A DNA stretch of 64,000 nt from Octopus sinensis (taxonomy: Eukaryota): assembly GCF_006345805.1 (NCBI RefSeq), contig NC_043011.1, positions 4,278,001 through 4,342,000 of the forward strand, written 5' to 3'. Of the stretch, positions 6,748 to 60,507 are shown in pieces (the stretch's first letter is position 1; every line of letters starts with the position of its first letter). The notes under the pieces were generated by a model. It saw only the letters and a list, made by a program, of their open reading frames with translations. It had not been told where the DNA came from and ran no database searches. The position numbers and the translations under genes are program-made.

Positions 6748-7378
6748 CATACATGCACACACACACATGTGTGTGTTTGCTAGTGTCTGTTTTTGTTTTA
6801 GTTTTTGTTGATTTATATGCATCCACAAACAAGCCAATGAGGCACTCTCTGTATGGTTGTTCAGTTTGCTAGTTAAAACACCCAAATCTCCCTCATACTA
6901 TGCTCTTGTTAGTATTAAGGAAAGGGAAAATGTTTACTCCTTTCCATCAGTACGATTAAAATTAGTACTTTTGATTTTGTTCGACTCTATGAATTTAATA
7001 CTTTTTTAAAGCTTCTGTCCATTGCGTGATACAGGAAATTGGAAAATCCTGACCAAAACAGAGAAATTCTAACTTAACAAAAAATATAGAAAGTGAAAGA
7101 AAAAGTTCTGTTTTCCAAAAGCCAAAAGATGTTTTTTAGCTGACGTGTAATTTTATAATTAAAGCAAATTCAAAATTTAAACTTCAAAACATAAAACTTA
7201 CCATGTTATCTGGTGTATGGGTCCCAGTTCAAATGGGTACAAAACGTAAAACAAATGTGTGTGTGTGTGTGTGTATTATTGGTTGGCTTTCTGATAGCCA
7301 GGGGTCAGTTTAAGTTCAATCGCAGAAAGGGATTCAAAATGGCAACACACGCAATCATATACATACAAACATACCTAT

Positions 7379-7597
7379 TTCTTTACTACCCACAAGGGGC
7401 TAAACACAGAGAGGACAAACAAACAGATTAAGTCGATTATATCGACCCCAGTGTGTAACTGGTACTTATTTAATCGACTCCGAAAAGATGAAAGGCAAAG
7501 TCGACCTCGGCGGAATTTGAACTCAGAACGTAACGGCAGACGAAATACCGCTCAGCATTTCACCCGGCATGCTAGCAACTCTGCCAGCTTGCCACCT
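7379..7597 (-). mobile_element. tRNA-headed SINE family B, monomer
   Basis: Head GGTGGCAAGCTGGCAGA, B-box-like GAGTTCAAATTCC, central GCCTTTCATC..GTCGATTAAATAAGTACCAG. TSD ATACAAAYATACCTAT at 7363-78 and 7598-7613. Confidence 0.85.
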
Positions 7598-16499: not shown

Positions 16500-17160
16500 A
16501 CCAAAGAGATGGCTAGATGACTACATTGACCCCAGAGTTCAGCTGCTGCTTATTTTATTGATCCCAAAAAGATGAAAAGTATAGTCGACCTCAGCAAAAT
16601 TTAAAGACGGACAAAATGTAAAGACGGACAAAATGCTGCTGAGTATTTTACCCAGCATGCTACCAATTCTTCCAGCTCACCTATCTTAATGATAATATCT
16701 GTAATAATAATCCTTTCTAATATAGGCACAAGGCCTGAAATTTGCATGGAAATGGGTAAGTCAATCACATTGACCTCCCCTTCCCCAGTCCTCAGCTGGT
16801 ACTTATTTTATTGACCCTGAAAGGATGAAAGACAAAGCCGCCCCTGGTAGCATTTGAACTCAGAATGTGATGATGGACAAAATACTGCAAGGCATTTTGC
16901 CCTGCATGCTAACGATTCTGCCAACTCACCACTTTCATGATAATAATAATGGATTTCAAATCTTAGTACAAGACCAGTAATATTGGGGGAGGAGGTGCCA
17001 AACTGGTACTTATTCTATGTACTCCTAAAGGATGAGAGGCAGAATTTAAACTCAGAACATGATGATTGACAAAATGACACTAAGTATTTTGCCTGACATT
17101 CTAATGATTCTACCAGCTCACCGGCTTAAAAAATAATAGTAATGATAATAATAATAATAA

Positions 17161-17221
<61 letters not shown>

Positions 17222-17255
17222 GATAATAATAATAATAATGATAATAATAATAATG

Positions 17256-17308
<53 letters not shown>

Positions 17309-17750
17309 TTTGCCGCAAGGGCAATAATTTTGGGGGAGGGGATGAGTCGATTACATCGACCCTAGTGTTCAAATGGTTACCTATTTTATCAACCCCAGAA
17401 GGATGAAAGACAAAGTTGACCTCAGCAGAATTTGAACTTAGAATGGAATGACGAATGAAATACCACTAAGCATTTCGTCTGCCATGCTAATGATTCTGCC
17501 AGCTTGCTGCCTTAATAATAATAATAATCCTTTTTATTACAGCTGCAAGGGGGTAAGTTGATCACATCAACCCCAGTACATGACTGGTAATTTATCGATC
17601 CCAGAAGGATGAAAGGCAAAGTTGACCCTTGATAGAATTTGAACTCAGAATTTAGTGACAGGCAAAATACCGCTAAGCACTTTGTCCAGCATGCTAACGA
17701 TTCTGCCAGCTCACCACCTTAATACTGCTACTACTAATAATAATAATAAT
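16500..17750 (-). mobile_element. Cluster of ~5 older SINE family B-related copies separated by (TAA)n tracts (longest 17137-17308)
   Basis: Repeated AAGGATGAAAG.CAAAGT.GACCT...TTTGAACTCAGAA...GATTCTGCCAGCTCACC blocks, all in the same orientation. Confidence 0.8.
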
Positions 17751-36166: not shown

Positions 36167-36935
36167 TATTTATATTTATATAAAAAAAATCACGGGGCCT
36201 CATAAAAAACATTGGTGTGGATGCTGGTGCCACGTAAAAAGTACTATTGATGGTTTCACATTAAAAGCCTCCAGTACACTCTGTGGAGTGAGTAGTTGGT
36301 GTTAGGAAGGGCATCCAGCCATAAATACCAAACCAAACCAGACTATGGAATATGATGTGGCCCCCTGGCCTTGCCAGTTCCTGTCAAGTTGTCCAACCCA
36401 TGCCAGCATCGTAAACGGATGTTAAATGATGACGATGATGTACGTCTGTTGTTGTTGGTTGAGGAGGACTATTGTAGAAGTCTTTCCAATTGTGACCATC
36501 CCTGTTTTGTATAACATACTGTATTTAAAACAACTTTAGCTAATGTATCAGTTGATTGGTGCGTGATTTGTTGGAGATTTGGCTGCTATTTTTAGCAGAT
36601 TGTGTGACTATGTGTAGACTGTCTCATTACTATGTGTGTGTGGTTATGTGTGTAATGGTGTGTGTGTATGAGTGCACGTGTGTGTGTGTGTGGTATATAT
36701 GTGTGTATGTATGGTAAACAGTTTTCAATCTTCTGTAAAAGCATGTCCAGCCATAGGAAAATATTACCATACATGGAAACAAGTGAGGGTTGGTGACAGG
36801 AAGAGCATCCGACTGTGGAAAATTTGCCTCAACAAATTCCATCTGACCTATGTAAGGATGAAAAGGGAAGCGGAAAATGACAATGGCAACAACAACAACA
36901 ATAATGATGATGATGCGGTGGAGGAGGATATATAT

Positions 36936-38265
36936 ATTTCTTTATTACCCGCAAGGGGCTACACACAGAGGGGACAAACAAGGACAGACAAAGGGATTAA
37001 GTTGATTACATCGACCCCAGTGCGTAACTGGTACTTATTTAATCGACCCCGAAAGGATGAAAGGCAAAGTCGACCTCGGCGGAATTTGAACTCAGGATGT
37101 AACGGCAGACGAAATACTTATTTCCTTACTGCCCACAAGGGGCTAAACACAGAAAGGACAACAAGGACAGACAAATGGATTAAGTCGATTATATCGACCC
37201 CAGTGCATAACTGGTACTTATTTAATCGACCCCGAAAGGATGAAAGGCAAAGTCGACCTCGGCGGAATTTGAACTCAGGATGTAACGGCAGACGAAATAC
37301 TTATTTCCTTACTGCCCACAAGGGGCTAAACACAGAAAGGACAAACAAGGACAGACAAATGGATTAAGTCGATTATATCGACCCCAGTGCATAACTGGTA
37401 CTTATTAATCGACCCCGAAGGATGAAAGGCAAAGTCGACCTCGGCGGAATTTGAACTCAGGATGTAACGGCAGACGAAATACTTATTTCCTTACTGCCCA
37501 CAAGGGGCTAAACACAGAAAGGACAAACAAGGACAGACAAATGGATTAAGTCGATTATATCGACCCCAGTGCATAACTGGTACTTATTTAATCGACCCCG
37601 AAAGGATGAAAGGCAAAGTCGACCTCGGCGGAATTTGAACTCAGGATGTAACGGCAGACGAAATACTTATTTCCTTACTGCCCACAAGGGGCTAAACACA
37701 GAAAGGACAAACAAGGACAGACAAATGGATTAAGTCGATTATATCGACCCCAGTGCATAACTGGTACTTATTTAATCGACCCCGAAAGGATGAAAGGCAA
37801 AGTCGACCTCGGCGGAATTTGAACTCAGGATGTAACGGCAGACGAAATACTTATTTCCTTACTGCCCACAAGGGGCTAAACACAGAAAGGACAAACAAGG
37901 ACAGACAAATGGATTAAGTCGATTATATCGACCCCAGTGCATAACTGGTACTTATTTAATCGACCCCGAAAGGATGAAAGGCAAGTCGACCTCGGCGGAA
38001 TTTGAACTCAGGATGTAACGGCAGACGAAATACTTATTTCCTTACTGCCCACAAGGGGCTAAACACAGAAAGGACAACAAGGACAGACAAATGGATTAAG
38101 TCGATTATATCGACCCCAGTGCATAACTGGTACTTATTTAATCGACCCCGAAAGGATGAAAGGCAAAGTCGACCTCGGCGGAATTTGAACTCAGGACGTA
38201 ACAGCAAACGAAATATGGCTACACATTTCGCCTGGCATGCTAACGTTTTTGCCAGCTCACCGCCT
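36936..38265 (-). mobile_element. SINE family B heptamer: 7 head-to-tail ~183-bp units, one complete head
   Basis: Seven units counted; enclosing TSD TGGAGGAGGATATATAT at 36919-35 and 38266-82. Confidence 0.9.
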
Positions 38266-38419
38266 TGGAGGAGGATATATATTTAAACATATATATATGC
38301 ATATAAATAAATATACACTTATACAGATATATGCAAATCTGCATGTGTGTACATAAGGACGTTCGTATGGAATGTATGAGCTTCATGCTCAGTGAAGGTG
38401 GAAAAAGAGTGGATTTTTT

Positions 38420-45036: not shown

Positions 45037-45451
45037 ATATATGTATATTTGTATGTGTGTGTTTGTGTTTGACCCACCACCACCACTGCTTTGCAACTGG
45101 TGCTAGTTTGTTTATATCCTGTAACTTAGCTCTTCAGCAAAAGACACTGATAGGATAAGTACCAGGCCTTAAAAAGATATGTGCTGGGGTTCATTCCCTC
45201 AACTAAAACCCTTCAGTGTGCTGCCACAGCATGGCCGCAGTTGAATGCATTCAGTTTATTGGGAAAAAGCAGTTGTCATGAACTCACCGATGTATTATGT
45301 CTTCTTGTCTGTTTTTCCCAAAACTACAATGGTTTCTGCTTTTATGAATTGGTATACACTGTGTACCATCACTATACTATCAGTATTTCAGTTTGATACT
45401 TTTGGTTTGGTCGTTCTCCCAGGTGTTTCAATGATTCCATGTGAGCCCACC

Positions 45452-46054
45452 TATTTCTTTACTACCCACAATGGGCTAAGCACAGAGGGGACAAACAAGG
45501 ACAGACACACAGATTAAGTCGATTACATCGACCTCAGTGCGTAACTGGTACTTATTTAATCAACACCGAAAGGATAAAAAGCAAAGTCGACCTCGGCGGA
45601 ATTTGAACTCAGAACGTAGCGGCAGACGAAATACCTATTTCTTTACTACCCACAAGGGACTAAACACAGAGGGGACAAACAAGGACAGACACACGGATTA
45701 AGTCGATTACATCGACCCCAGTGCGTAACTGGTACTTATTTAATCGACCCCAAAAGGATAAAAGGCAAAGTCGACCTCGGCGGAATTTGAACTCAGAATG
45801 TAGCGGCAGATGAAATACCTATTTCTTTACTACCCACAAGGGGCTAAACACAGAGGGGACAAACAAGGACAGACACACGGATTAAGTCGATTACATCGAC
45901 CCCAGTGCGTAACTGGTACTTATGTAATCGACCTCGAAAGGATACAAGGCAAAGTCGACCTCGGCGGAATTTGAACTCAGAATGTAACGGCAGACGAAAT
46001 ACTGCTAAGCATTTCGCCTGGCATGCTAACGTTTCTACCAGCTCGCCGCCCTAA
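45452..46054 (-). mobile_element. SINE family B trimer
   Basis: Three units, one head; TSD CATGTGAGC(C/A)CACC at 45438-51 and 46055-68. Confidence 0.9.
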
Positions 46055-46286
46055 CATGTGAGCACACCGTCCATCATGGTCCCCCATGAATGTTCATAAT
46101 TTGTCAACATTTGCCATTCCTCTGTCCTGAAGGAAGTTGTCTACATGCATTTGGTTCTTCCTTCAACTGAATGCCATAAGACCATTTGACACACACGTTC
46201 TTCTGGGTGTCTGATGCAGTGACCAGCAGTTCTCAGTCTTCTCTGCTGAATCTTCTCAGTCTCTTGGGTAGATATTGATAAAGCTG

Positions 46287-52953: not shown

Positions 52954-53805
52954 GGACTCACTGCTAGGATAAAAAGTAATGTAGATGGACTCACTGCTAG
53001 GACAAAAAGTAATATAGATGGACTCACTGCTAGGACAAAATGTAATATAGATGGACTCACTGCTAGGACAAAAAGTAATGTAGATGGACTCACTGCTAGG
53101 ACAAAAAGTAATGTAGATGGACTCACTGCCAGGACAAAAATTAATATAGATGGACTCACTGCTAGGACAAAAAGTAATATAGATGGACTCACTGCTAGGA
53201 CAAAAAGTAATATAGATGGACTCACTGCTAGGACAAAAAGTAATATAGATGGACTCACTGCTAGGACAAAAAGCAATATAGATGGACTCACTGCTAGGAC
53301 AAAAAGTAATGTAGATGGACTCACTGCTAGGACAAAAAGTAGTAGATGGACTCACTGCTAGGACATAATGTAGATGGACTCACTGCTAGGACAAAAAGTA
53401 ATATAGATGGACTCACTGCTAGGACAAAAAGTAATATAGATGGACTCACTGCTAGGACAAAAAGTAATATAGATGGACTCACTGCTAGGACAAAAAGTAA
53501 TGTAGATGGACTCACTGCTAGGACAAAAAGTAATGTAGATGGACTCACTGCTAGGACAAAAAGTAATGTAGATGGACTCACTGCTAGGACAAAAAGCAAT
53601 ATAGATGGACTCACTGCTCGGACAAAAAGTAATATAGATGGACTCACTGCTAGGACAAAAAGCAATATAGATGGACTCACTGCTAGGACAAAAAGTAATA
53701 TAGATGGACTCACTGCTAGGACAAAAAGTAATATAGATGGACTCGCTGCTAGGATAAAAAGTAATATAGATGGACTCACTGCTAGGACAAACAGTAATAT
53801 AGATG
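52954..53805. repeat. 33-bp minisatellite, ~26 copies (GGACTCACTGCTAGGACAAAAAGTAATRTAGAT)
   Basis: Directly visible; two shortened units near 53340-53370. Confidence 0.97.
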
Positions 53806-54709: not shown

Positions 54710-54935
54710 TATTTCTTTCTTTATTGCCCACAAAGGGCTAAACATAAAGGGGACAGACAAATGATTAAGTCGATTGCATCAACCCCAGTGCATAACTGGT
54801 ACTTAATTTATCGACCCCCGAAAGGATGAAAGGCAAAGTCGACCTCGGTGGAAATTGAACTCAGAACATAACGGTAAACAAAATACCGCTAGGCATTTCG
54901 CCCTGTGTGCTAACATTTCTGCCAACTTGCCGCCT
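54710..54935 (-). mobile_element. SINE family B monomer
   Basis: Family B body and head; ATATCATAT on both flanks. Confidence 0.85.
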
Positions 54936-57660: not shown

Positions 57661-57844
57661 GCATATCTGTACATGTATGCGTGTAATGTATGCATGCCTC
57701 GTCATTATTACACTTGCTTTCCATGCTGGCAGAAGTCAGAGGGTCTTCCCAGTGCAGTCAGTTCTTACTTGGAATCACTGCTCTCATTAATTGATGCGTA
57801 TACATGTCATTTTACGTCTGGTTTCTATGGATGCCCTTCCTATC

Positions 57845-58453
57845 TATTTCTTTACTACCCACAAGGGGCTAAACACAGAGAAGACAAACAAGGACAGACA
57901 AACGGATTAAGTCGATTATATCGACCCCAGTGAGTAACTGGTACTTATTTCATCGACCTCAAAAGGATGAAAGGCAAAGTCGACCTCGGCGGAATTTGAA
58001 CTCAGGACGTAACCGCAGACGAAATACCTATTTCTTTACTACCCACAAGGGGCTAAACACAGAGGGGACAAACAAGGATAGACAAACGGATTAAGTCGAT
58101 CACATCGACCCCAGTGAGTAACTGGTACTTATTTCATCGACCTCAAAAGGATGAAAGGCAAAGTCGACCTCGGCGGAATTTGAATTCAGAATGTAACGGC
58201 AGACGAAATACCTATTTCTTTACTACCCACAAGGGACTAAACACAGAGGGGACAAACAAGGACAGACAAACGGATTAAGTCGATTACATCGACCCCAGTG
58301 CGTAACTGGTACTTATTTAATCGACCTCAAAAGGATGAAAGGCAAAGTTAACTTGGTGGAATTTGAACTCAGGACGTAGCAGCAGACAAAATATTGCTAA
58401 GCATTTCACTCGGCGTGCTAACGATTCTGCCAGCTCACCGCCTTATGGTGATA
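57845..58453 (-). mobile_element. SINE family B trimer
   Basis: Three units, one head; TSD GGATGCCCTTCCTATC at 57829-44 and 58454-69. Confidence 0.9.
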
Positions 58454-58914
58454 GGATGCCCTTCCTATCACCAACCACATTACAGTATATATTGGGTGCA
58501 TTTTATCAGCAAGTCAAGACTAGAGGTTTCTCTTGGCCTTTTGCTTTCTTCACTCATTTGCCAAATACTTTACGGTGTATACTGCATGTTTTTTTTCAGT
58601 GAGGCAACAGTACAGGGGTTGTCAAGTCCTCATCAAGACAAGACCTAAGAGACTTTGCAGGAGACTACTTTTCCTCTGCTTGGTTACCAATCACGATAGG
58701 GAATGCCCTAATGAGGAAGGAAGTGTTTCACCATTGCACCAGTAGAGGGAGGGATATCTTGTATATTGTAAGTGTAGAGAGTATGAAGTACCCAAAGCCA
58801 AAGAAAATCTGCCCCAGATAAATTCCATAGGATCCATACAAACATGGAAAAGTGGGCGTTGCATAATGATGATAATGATAAGTGTGTGGGTGGGTGTATG
58901 AGTGTATATATATA

Positions 58915-59340: not shown

Positions 59341-60507
59341 TTTCTTTCTTTCTTTCTTTCTTTATTAGCCATGCAGGGCTGAACACAGAGGGGACAAATT
59401 ACAAAGTAGAGCTCTTCTTTTGGGTAAGAAAAAAGAGTGGTAGGTTTTCGATCAAAAGGGATCGTAAAAAGAAAGAAAGAAAAAAAAAACGATCAATAGG
59501 GATTGTGTATTACAGAAATGTCATAATGTAAAGTATAAAGGGAGAAACAGATAAGGTTTATCCGTGGAAAGAAAAGACTATGGAAAAGACCACGGTAACC
59601 TCAGTCAATAATGTCACATGTTAACATATTTATTTGCAAGTAAGTAACTCTGTTTTAAATTTTTCCGGGTTCATAGGATTATGCTCAAGGTGGCTTAGTC
59701 ATTCATACGTACCATCCTTGCTACATTCACCCATCTTTTTTTGAAACATTCACTATACAAAACTTGCCTCTCTACTCTCACTTTCCTTTCCAAGTGATAC
59801 TTGAAGAAGTTGATGAGAGATTGAACAGTGAGGAAAGTGTTTGTCTCTAATCTTTTCAGATGCATCCACCAGATACATTCTTTCGCCATAGTCACAAATA
59901 TGATGAAAATAGCTCTTCCTTCCCATTTGAAGGAAGGAGGCGTGACAATATTGACGATAGACTTGGCTGATAAACTGACTTGTTCCGCACGTCACAGCAG
60001 TCATTCGACATAAGCCCACGGGTCAGAAATGGTTGGACACTGCACGAGTGTGTGCAAAATGGTTTCGTCACTCTGACCGCATCTCGGGCCGGTCAGCCCC
60101 ATGTTTCTCGAGCCGTGTCTGTAGAGCTTATCCTGAACGAGTAGTGCTTCTCGGTAGCACTGCCAAGCCAGGGATCTCTGGAAGTTGTCCATAGGTCCCG
60201 GCCCAAAAGTCGTCTTGGACAGGCGGGTAAGGTATTCCTTATTGACACCCAGGTTCGACCCGAGATCATCGTCGTACTTCCCCTCCACTAACCCCCTATA
60301 GAATACTTTGGTTGTGTTGAAGTCGCTCAAGGTCGACCCGGGACGGCATAGTTGCTTGAGAGCAATGTGACACTCGCAGTGCCATTCGCCCTTCCTCGGC
60401 CTCTTTTTGATCGACGACTGCCGTTCAGTCATGGAGATGAGCTGCAGGAAAGTGTGCCTCACAAACAGCGACCACACCTGTTCACTGTCATCTAGATAGA
60501 GTCGTAG
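59341..60507 (-). mobile_element. L1/Tx1-clade LINE 3' end, 5'-truncated
   Basis: FQRSLAWQCYREALLVQDKLYRHG...(G)PRCGQSDETILHTLVQCP (zf-RVT-like knuckle), AKECIWW.., UTR, then AATAAA and (AAAG)n tail. Confidence 0.82.

Follow-up and report, generated by a model that had tools for sequence, protein, structure and literature searches.

In crocodilians, the SINE SINEU-3 shares the target preference of a Tx1-type LINE, Tx1-Mar, and forms tandems by sequential insertion (Kojima 2015, PMC4494074; here and below, statements on cited papers refer to their accessible parts). Other Tx1-type lineages are also sequence-specific: Tx1L inserts into Tx1D, Keno into U2 genes, and Kibi and Koshi into microsatellites (PMC4494074). 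In the blood clam Scapharca broughtonii, 64 elements of the form TSD1-(SINE)n-TSD1 comprise arrays of 4-15 units, for which recombination was proposed (PMC11481361), and squamate SINE-derived satellites, tandems of partial SINEs, have been put down to unequal recombination (Vassetzky 2023, PMC10702118). As far as the accessible parts of the SINE-satellite literature examined go, recombination alone is invoked. At the 'anneal' 5' junctions of R2, the cDNA pairs with the upstream target sequence, giving a seamless joint with no duplication (PMC11331408). Such annealing occurs when the RNA carries upstream target sequence, and it was not a major determinant of efficiency in assays (PMC11331408). 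For Octopus vulgaris, the accessible part of a repeat paper reports SINE and L1-Tx1 totals, and we found no analysis of nested or tandem SINEs in it (PMC13282606). In the literature searched, mostly non-subscription papers, we found no account of a SINE that targets its own head or promoter.

We analysed a 64,000-nucleotide stretch of Octopus sinensis DNA (the whole of it is called the window here), in which an earlier note had recognised tandem SINE arrays with a fixed junction and had suggested either repeated reverse transcription of a circular or loop-cleaved SINE RNA or duplication after insertion. The arrays were compared with copies of the same SINE elsewhere in the genome. We consider it probable that they grow in place, by site-directed retrotransposition into resident SINE copies followed by local duplication.

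Tandem arrays of the window and the recurrent joint

The analysis reproduced the reported arrays of seven, three and three units. TRF identified a 184-bp unit present in 7.0 copies at 36935-38215, 3.0 copies at 45449-46002 and 3.0 copies at 57844-58393. All three arrays lie on the minus strand, each with a single complete head, and each is enclosed by a single TSD of 17, 14 (one mismatch) or 16 bp, in agreement with the 14-17 bp given before. The TSD of the seven-unit array is exact over 17 bp, with the 3'-end copy at 36919-36935 (its last base is common to the SINE end) and the 5'-end copy at 38266-38282. Unit 1 (bases 1-231 of the SINE; 38035-38264, minus strand) carries the sole complete head, which is of the variant H2 (G43/C48) and folds into a hairpin (bases 35-56) at 38209-38230 on the minus strand. 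Units 2-6 (bases 48-231; 37119-38034, minus strand) show zero substitutions and differ by single-base gaps only, which are probably sequencing errors. Unit 7 (bases 48-231; 36935-37118, minus strand) shows 11 differences from units 1-6, all of them at base 142 or beyond. Seven variants from base 142 on are common to units 1-6 and absent in unit 7, and 48A and 68A are common to units 2-7 and absent in unit 1. The repeated piece is therefore composed of the 3' part of unit 1, the joint and the 5' part of unit 7, and the array is thus a dimer expanded at the DNA level. Unit 7 would be the 3' portion of a resident copy, units 2-6 would derive from local DNA duplication of the dimer joint, and the 7-mer may have arisen by unequal exchange or slippage.

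The 45-kb trimer (head and three units with joints at base 48; 45452-46050, minus strand) is flanked by 14-bp TSD copies with one mismatch at 45438-45451 and 46055-46068. The variants 107T and 175G occur in all three of its units, and it could be either an aged duplication or a composite moved whole. The 57-kb trimer (head and three units; 57845-58442, minus strand) lies between 16-bp TSD copies, exact and recognised by eye, at 57829-57844 and, on the head side, 58454-58469. Eleven extra bases (58443-58453), read as an inverted copy of the adjoining flank, separate its head from the TSD, which was therefore missed by automated TSD detection. In this trimer 115T and 117A are found in all three units, and 125G and 143T in units 2 and 3 only, a nested sharing of the same kind as in the 37-kb array. 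The window also contains two monomers of the same SINE on the minus strand, one at approximately 7376-7596, with the GGTA motif within its TSD, and a more diverged one at approximately 54714-54934. Five old SINE relatives stand in a row at 16519-17718 (minus strand) with (ATT)n runs between them, and a similar cluster was seen in L080; the window cluster looks like the result of serial insertions into each other's microsatellite tail. A minisatellite with 26 copies of a 33-bp unit (95% matches) occupies 52954-53805.

The element is 231 bp long, and a TSD (mean about 15 bp) was detected in 54 of 73 monomers. Exact head matches genome-wide numbered 32,958 for the variant H1 and 17,974 for H2. 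Being short, high-copy, dispersed and flanked by TSDs, it belongs to the SINE class. No tRNA was recognised in it by ARAGORN, nor by Rfam at E of at most 5, and a search for its motifs in two of the three supplements of PMC4824008, made with the named cephalopod SINEs (OK, OR1 and OR2) and the CORE/Meta superfamily in view, gave no match. Members of the family have the head and core in common (bases 1-165) and carry one of two tails: A, which is found in the window arrays, and B, whose copies are older (divergence of 0.072 versus 0.034 over bases 65-139). In its head we read an A-box-like motif (bases 11-21) and a B-box-like motif (bases 73-85), which presumably function as such, and the head hairpin lies between them. 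The H2 head changes T43-G48 to G43-C48, with the stem kept and GGTA lost (68 + 16 versus 58 of 155 heads).

A copies terminate at ...AAAGAAATA, and the TSD starts exactly there in 34 of the 68 detected TSDs and one base earlier in 14. The joint is accordingly placed between head bases 47 and 48, one base before the point given in the earlier note. When the landing sites of 95 SINE ends were collected, GGTA was the most frequent (25), followed by TATA (21), AGAA (9) and GATA (9). Two of these motifs occur in the SINE head itself, GGTA at base 48 and AGAA at base 15. Among 283 joints, a sample enriched for those at base 48, 236 fell at base 48, a further 10 at base 48 with a 6-nt stutter and 26 at base 15. 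The two recurrent joints correspond to these two motifs; the joint thus coincides with a landing motif that the element carries internally. The joint pattern had 34,631 exact matches in the 2.72-Gb assembly, about the H1 head count and twice the H2 head count, and the reversed control had 0. The claim of a fixed junction therefore holds genome-wide, with the corrections that the point lies one base earlier and that a second recurrent joint exists at base 15. Folding also supported the claim that the joint sits at the 3' edge of the head-hairpin loop, as the 47/48 site borders a 4-nt loop. No TTTT terminator was present across the joint. The 6-nt stutter of the SINE end was seen at the independent loci L105, L131, L134, L138, L147 and L217 and may result from slippage of the reverse transcriptase at priming or be inherited from the source. 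Multimers made up 6 of 26 A-tailed elements (23%) in 400 kb of contiguous sequence taken from elsewhere in the genome, and 3 of 5 within the window. More than 20% of insertions thus lie at one repeat target, as for SINEU, in a small sample and at a value near that threshold.

Origin and age order of the units

About 340 loci were collected by pattern searches and as fetched stretches, giving 546 SINE-like elements after removal of duplicates; elements touching a locus edge were dropped. The contiguous, unselected DNA comprises only the window, L061-L080 and L081-L100. The loci were mostly chosen by exact patterns, at the start of contig C1, and the divergence values are therefore biased to young copies and the loci lean to base-48 joints. 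A set of 67 clean arrays was defined by three features: the head begins no later than base 10, every joint lies near base 48, and the last unit extends to base 140.

The units of one element usually do not resemble each other more than they resemble other copies. Adjacent units of two-piece elements were 9.9% apart, in comparison to 10.3% for random pairs, and the concordance of dimer units at 8 subfamily sites was 77/150, about chance. The units are therefore not copies of one RNA, contrary to the proposal that a single circular or loop-cleaved RNA was reverse transcribed repeatedly. The private variants shared by the units of an array, which the earlier note had reported, were confirmed for the three arrays of the window and are not a property of the family, since 15 of 20 adjacent unit pairs of two-piece elements had no rare variant in common. 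Near-identical units occurred in a minority of arrays. Duplication after insertion, the other route proposed before, is borne out in part, by units 2-6 of the 37-kb array and not by the dimers of the family, which are mostly not clonal. The longest array seen had 10 units, and arrays of 9 and 10 units were found at L117 and L030.

The first and last units also differ in age. Over bases 65-139, the last unit was more diverged than the first in 47 of the 67 clean arrays and less diverged in 16 (0.071 versus 0.040, p 1.5e-6), and the same tendency was observed in dimers (31 versus 12 of 44) and in A-ended arrays (23 versus 10 of 36). The divergence of array heads was 0.094, between the values for monomers with an A tail (0.060) and those with a B tail (0.126). 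The older B-tail subfamily formed the array end in 31 of the 67 clean arrays, and a B tail was joined to base 48 in none of 12 joints. B-type bases 63-64 were found in the first units of 7 of 67 arrays and in none of 88 A monomers (p 0.002). An old head and an old last unit around a younger middle, together with the B-tail ends, indicate a young insert within an old copy.

Several observations complicate this order. The A-specific H2 head was present on 4 of 31 B-ended arrays, so the heads are not simply resident, and the correlation between head age and last-unit age was weak (rho 0.27, p 0.057, n=51). At L007, L125 and L019, the first unit carried B-type bases and the last unit was A-type, an order that implies a crossover past base 64 and hence a multimeric template or gene conversion. 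The first and last units of dimers had non-consensus bases at positions 65-100 in common more often than controls did (13 of 101 versus 3%). One dimer (L137; 1 of the 16 truncated arrays listed) was 5'-truncated, started at base 72 and had its own 18-bp TSD, from which it follows that dimers also move whole.

Insertions into resident copies and the candidate LINE

At L217, three tandem paralogues have the same flanks: a B monomer, a second copy in which there are two A units, and a third with a single A unit. All three heads carry G7T, and seven variants are common to copy 1 and to the last unit of copy 2. They are paralogues of one old copy with 0, 2 and 1 added units. Here, among paralogues, a monomer expanded later, an outcome that the earlier note had itself named, for orthologous loci, as speaking against its idea.

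Insertions at base 48 that kept a target duplication were searched for as full-length heads starting 0-16 bases after the base-48 motif GGTATTTCGTCTG. This pattern had 109 exact matches, in comparison to 4 at a control SINE site whose motif is present in only part of the SINE family. The 30 matches fetched represented 23 distinct loci, and the host SINE resumed at base 48 in 15 of them and not in the other 8. Duplications of 13-25 bp flanked the nested full-length SINEs as well as a single complete LINE located at base 48; copies of this kind, like the age order and the L217 paralogues, contradict an origin of the arrays from a circular or loop-cleaved RNA. Antisense insertions at another GGTA, in the SINE core, gave 780 matches, with a TSD beside the insert in 13 of the 20 fetched. 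Scaled by target counts, they are near the background for any GGTA (an estimated 0.3% or so per site). The seamless joints (34,631) exceeded the nested copies with a duplication (109) about 300-fold and the antisense insertions (780) about 45-fold. In view of the 45-fold excess of seamless joints, a preference for GGTA is not enough, and either an endonuclease or pairing of a read-through RNA must add specificity.

Head-only tandem repeats of SINE bases 1-63 or 1-74, with a period of 65-76 bp and at least 8 copies, were seen at L145-L152, L163-L165 and G000:C3430:1639-2141. They are a second satellite seed arising from the base-48 site. At L154:1560-1800 (minus strand), a different short element with a related tail was located at base 15 of a SINE head.

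The complete LINE at base 48 (L341) is 5.4 kb long, frameshifted, and contains zf-CCHC, Exo_endo_phos and RVT_1 domains. It occupies an H2 (C48) head, with head base 63 on one side and base 48 on the other, has a duplication of 16 bp, and ends in a tail that matches SINE bases 197-230 at 82%. We class it as an L1/Tx1-type LINE; its endonuclease is closest to that of L1 in the PDB and scores alike with the L1 and TX1 clusters in the Atlas (0.96 each). The SINE tail (bases 185-231) is common to three L1/Tx1-type LINE families, in line with a 3' tail shared between SINE and LINE. One of these LINE types is represented in the window by a broken 3' fragment at 59357-60495 (minus strand; zf-RVT, E 2e-5, below the Pfam cut-off), the last 42 bases of which match SINE bases 188-229 at 83%. 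Its family is very abundant (22,314 first-look candidates), and among 30 loci the 20 readable 3' ends were mostly in (ATCT)n and none in the SINE. Given this landing preference, we do not regard the family of the window fragment as the direct partner of the SINE; it is a relative of the likely partner. Sister LINE lineages have fixed 3' flanks, one common to 15 of 30 copies (L292-L296, L300-L303, L305-L307, L309 and L310 among the copies with fixed flanks) and another to 3 copies (L284, L285 and L298).

The L341 LINE was the only copy found at base 48, with none among 30 sister-LINE loci. Of three pattern searches for a LINE tail at base 48, two gave 0 matches (the first, whose pattern opened with degenerate letters, may carry no information). 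The third, for a tail variant, had 55 matches; 30 of these were fetched, and every one proved to be a SINE. An RTE-type LINE was also considered as the partner and set aside, since the 850 bases that follow the ORF of the RTE-like copy at L078 contain nothing that resembles the SINE tail. This copy (L078:7346-9250, plus strand) has an RTE-like ORF with a PHD-like finger (below the cut-off) after the RT domain, followed by a tandemly repeated 3' region.

Probable growth of the arrays in place and comparison with known systems

In the mechanism that we consider probable, a young SINE copy would likely be reverse transcribed by an enzyme that likely comes from an L1/Tx1-type LINE, and it would land at GGTA, base 48, in the head of a genomic copy older than itself. 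The 5' end would then likely be joined seamlessly through homology with the resident head. Once base 48 had been nicked, synthesis of the cDNA would proceed into bases 63-1. Given the homology of these bases to the resident head, the cDNA could anneal there and leave no duplication. The seamless joint might alternatively form when a head-head intermediate collapses by recombination, and the head-only tandem repeats of bases 1-63 indicate that head-head intermediates do recombine. Both annealing and collapse would yield mixed heads, such as those seen. Repeated rounds, together with local DNA duplication, would likely produce the longer arrays. The site has the A-box-like motif on one side and the B-box-like motif on the other. 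A seamless insertion there would consequently leave the promoter intact, and the composite could be transcribed and sometimes moved as a whole.

The site may be chosen by a sequence-specific endonuclease, by pairing of a read-through RNA with the target, or by both, and we give these options about even weight. The LINE in a C48 head at L341 and the fixed targets of the sister lineages argue for the endonuclease. Guidance by RNA is favoured by the G found nearly always at base 48 in joints, though H2 heads are common (C at base 48 occurred in none of 211 joints by pattern, and in one, at L217, by eye), and by some crossovers past base 64. Tail variants were associated with the landing site: tails ending in C-A-A were found on AG in 7 of 15 cases, in comparison to 6 of 70, p 0.001, and 219C was present in 81% of 16 units before a base-15 joint and in 3% of 106 before base 48. 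The targets of monomers matched the start of the next unit beyond GGTA, reading GGTAT in 16 of 25 cases against a background of 27%. These observations are hints at a self-homing SINE, a tentative idea that we think somewhat doubtful, in which a read-through multimer RNA containing the start of the next unit pairs with any genomic head and guides its own insertion. Under such self-homing, the H2 head, with G43/C48, hairpin kept and GGTA lost, would be an escape variant. If self-homing is true, each insertion would keep the promoter and give more guide-bearing RNA, a feedback that would lead to tens of thousands of satellite seeds.

Other origins of the arrays can be set against the same data. 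Multimeric source genes read through by Pol III could be retrotransposed whole, so that the fixed joint would be inherited from a few founder multimers. The lack of TTTT across the joint would permit such read-through, and the truncated L137 dimer with its own TSD, the stutter at several loci (10 of 283 joints) and the two variants common to all three 45-kb units agree with it. It gives no account of the age order, in which a younger middle is enclosed by a head and a last unit that are both older, of 0, 1 or 2 units in the L217 paralogues or of discordant dimer units, and we judge it highly unlikely as the general origin; as a route it is likely real but minor. An origin at the DNA level only, in which ectopic gene conversion or unequal exchange copies the joint into a monomer, or a monomer duplicates by microhomology, would fit the identical units at 37 kb, the crossovers past base 64, the non-consensus bases shared by first and last dimer units, and the head-only repeats, which show recombination at SINE loci. 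Duplication in place predicts clonal dimers, contrary to the unit pairs described above, and neither the target duplications at base 48 nor the match of the joint to the landing motif of monomers is explained. The DNA-only route explains growth and not seeding, and as a full account it seems very improbable.

The remaining two alternatives place the repetition within reverse transcription. If the reverse transcriptase, in the course of a single insertion, left one SINE RNA at its base 48 and jumped to a second SINE RNA at its 3' end, through GAAAUA/UAUUUC pairing or a cleaved loop, a single TSD, mixed units and a donor head would be produced, in agreement with the H2 heads of B-ended arrays and with the folding of the joint as a small stem. 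Such a jump predicts parts of one age, contrary to the observed age order, and could produce neither the LINE nor the full-length SINEs with duplications at base 48. It would also leave no resident variants in the head and last unit of paralogues, and L217 largely refutes it; we hold out very little prospect for it. Rolling-circle reverse transcription of a 184-nt circular SINE RNA would account for a fixed joint at the hairpin loop and for the near-identical units in a minority of arrays. The units usually differ in source and age, though, and the arrays open with a head and close in a true tail, which often belongs to another subfamily. In line with the earlier observation that no ribozyme is evident, none was found by Rfam, and no CTGANGA hammerhead core was present on either strand across the joint. 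We regard this origin as extremely unlikely. Circular RNA does not appear to be needed for the arrays, a circular-RNA reading is not supported by the sequences compared, and the arrays provide no evidence for a ribozyme-free circular RNA.

Growth in place, the probable reading, describes a route from a dispersed SINE to tandem repeats, in which the 184-bp dimer joint would be seeded by retrotransposition, at tens of thousands of loci, and then expanded through recombination. In the LINE-SINE pair, the SINE would be both passenger and landing pad; the safe-harbour strategy is known for rDNA, snRNA genes and DNA transposons. A composite 'element' holds parts of different age, and SINE copy counts and age estimates break down as a consequence.

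Non-LTR retrozymes also form tandems of short units in animal genomes; as described in the accessible parts of the reports, they contain hammerhead ribozymes and have a link to Penelope-like elements, and neither feature was seen here (bioRxiv 10.64898/2026.07.22.740005; PMC4918200). The octopus arrays, in which no ribozyme was found and whose units do not come from one template, were therefore not assigned to them. The blood clam arrays are alike in their one complete head, head-truncated repeats and one TSD. They differ in that their internal units also lack part of the tail and in being far fewer, and we found no self-targeting described in the accessible part of that paper (PMC11481361). 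The resemblance to the squamate satellites concerns the longer terminal unit, the homogeneous long arrays and the unit of nucleosomal length (PMC10702118); the 37-kb array and those at L117 and L030 are likewise partial-SINE tandems with a longer terminal unit and homogenised long arrays. The squamate units vary between taxa and loci, whereas in the octopus one joint has been seeded independently at tens of thousands of dispersed loci (PMC10702118 for the squamates, accessible part). The seamless joints recall those of R2, whose target is 28S rDNA and whose endonuclease is restriction-like, whereas the homology used by the octopus SINE is its own head (PMC11331408). As in Tx1-type lineages, the related LINEs are found here in (ATCT)n, at other fixed flanks and once in a SINE head; unlike the targets of Tx1L, Keno, Kibi and Koshi, the target here is a SINE that apparently depends on the same machinery. 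The likeness to SINEU-3 and Tx1-Mar lies in a SINE that, in the octopus probably, is steered into a repeat by a Tx1-type LINE, and in tandem formation (PMC4494074). For SINEU the target is a Mariner DNA transposon and the TSD is kept between tandem copies (PMC4494074), whereas the octopus SINE targets its own head and nearly all of its joints are seamless and head-less. In its probable mode of action the octopus SINE thus resembles SINEU with Tx1-Mar, and in its outcome a SINE-derived satellite; it is not a retrozyme.
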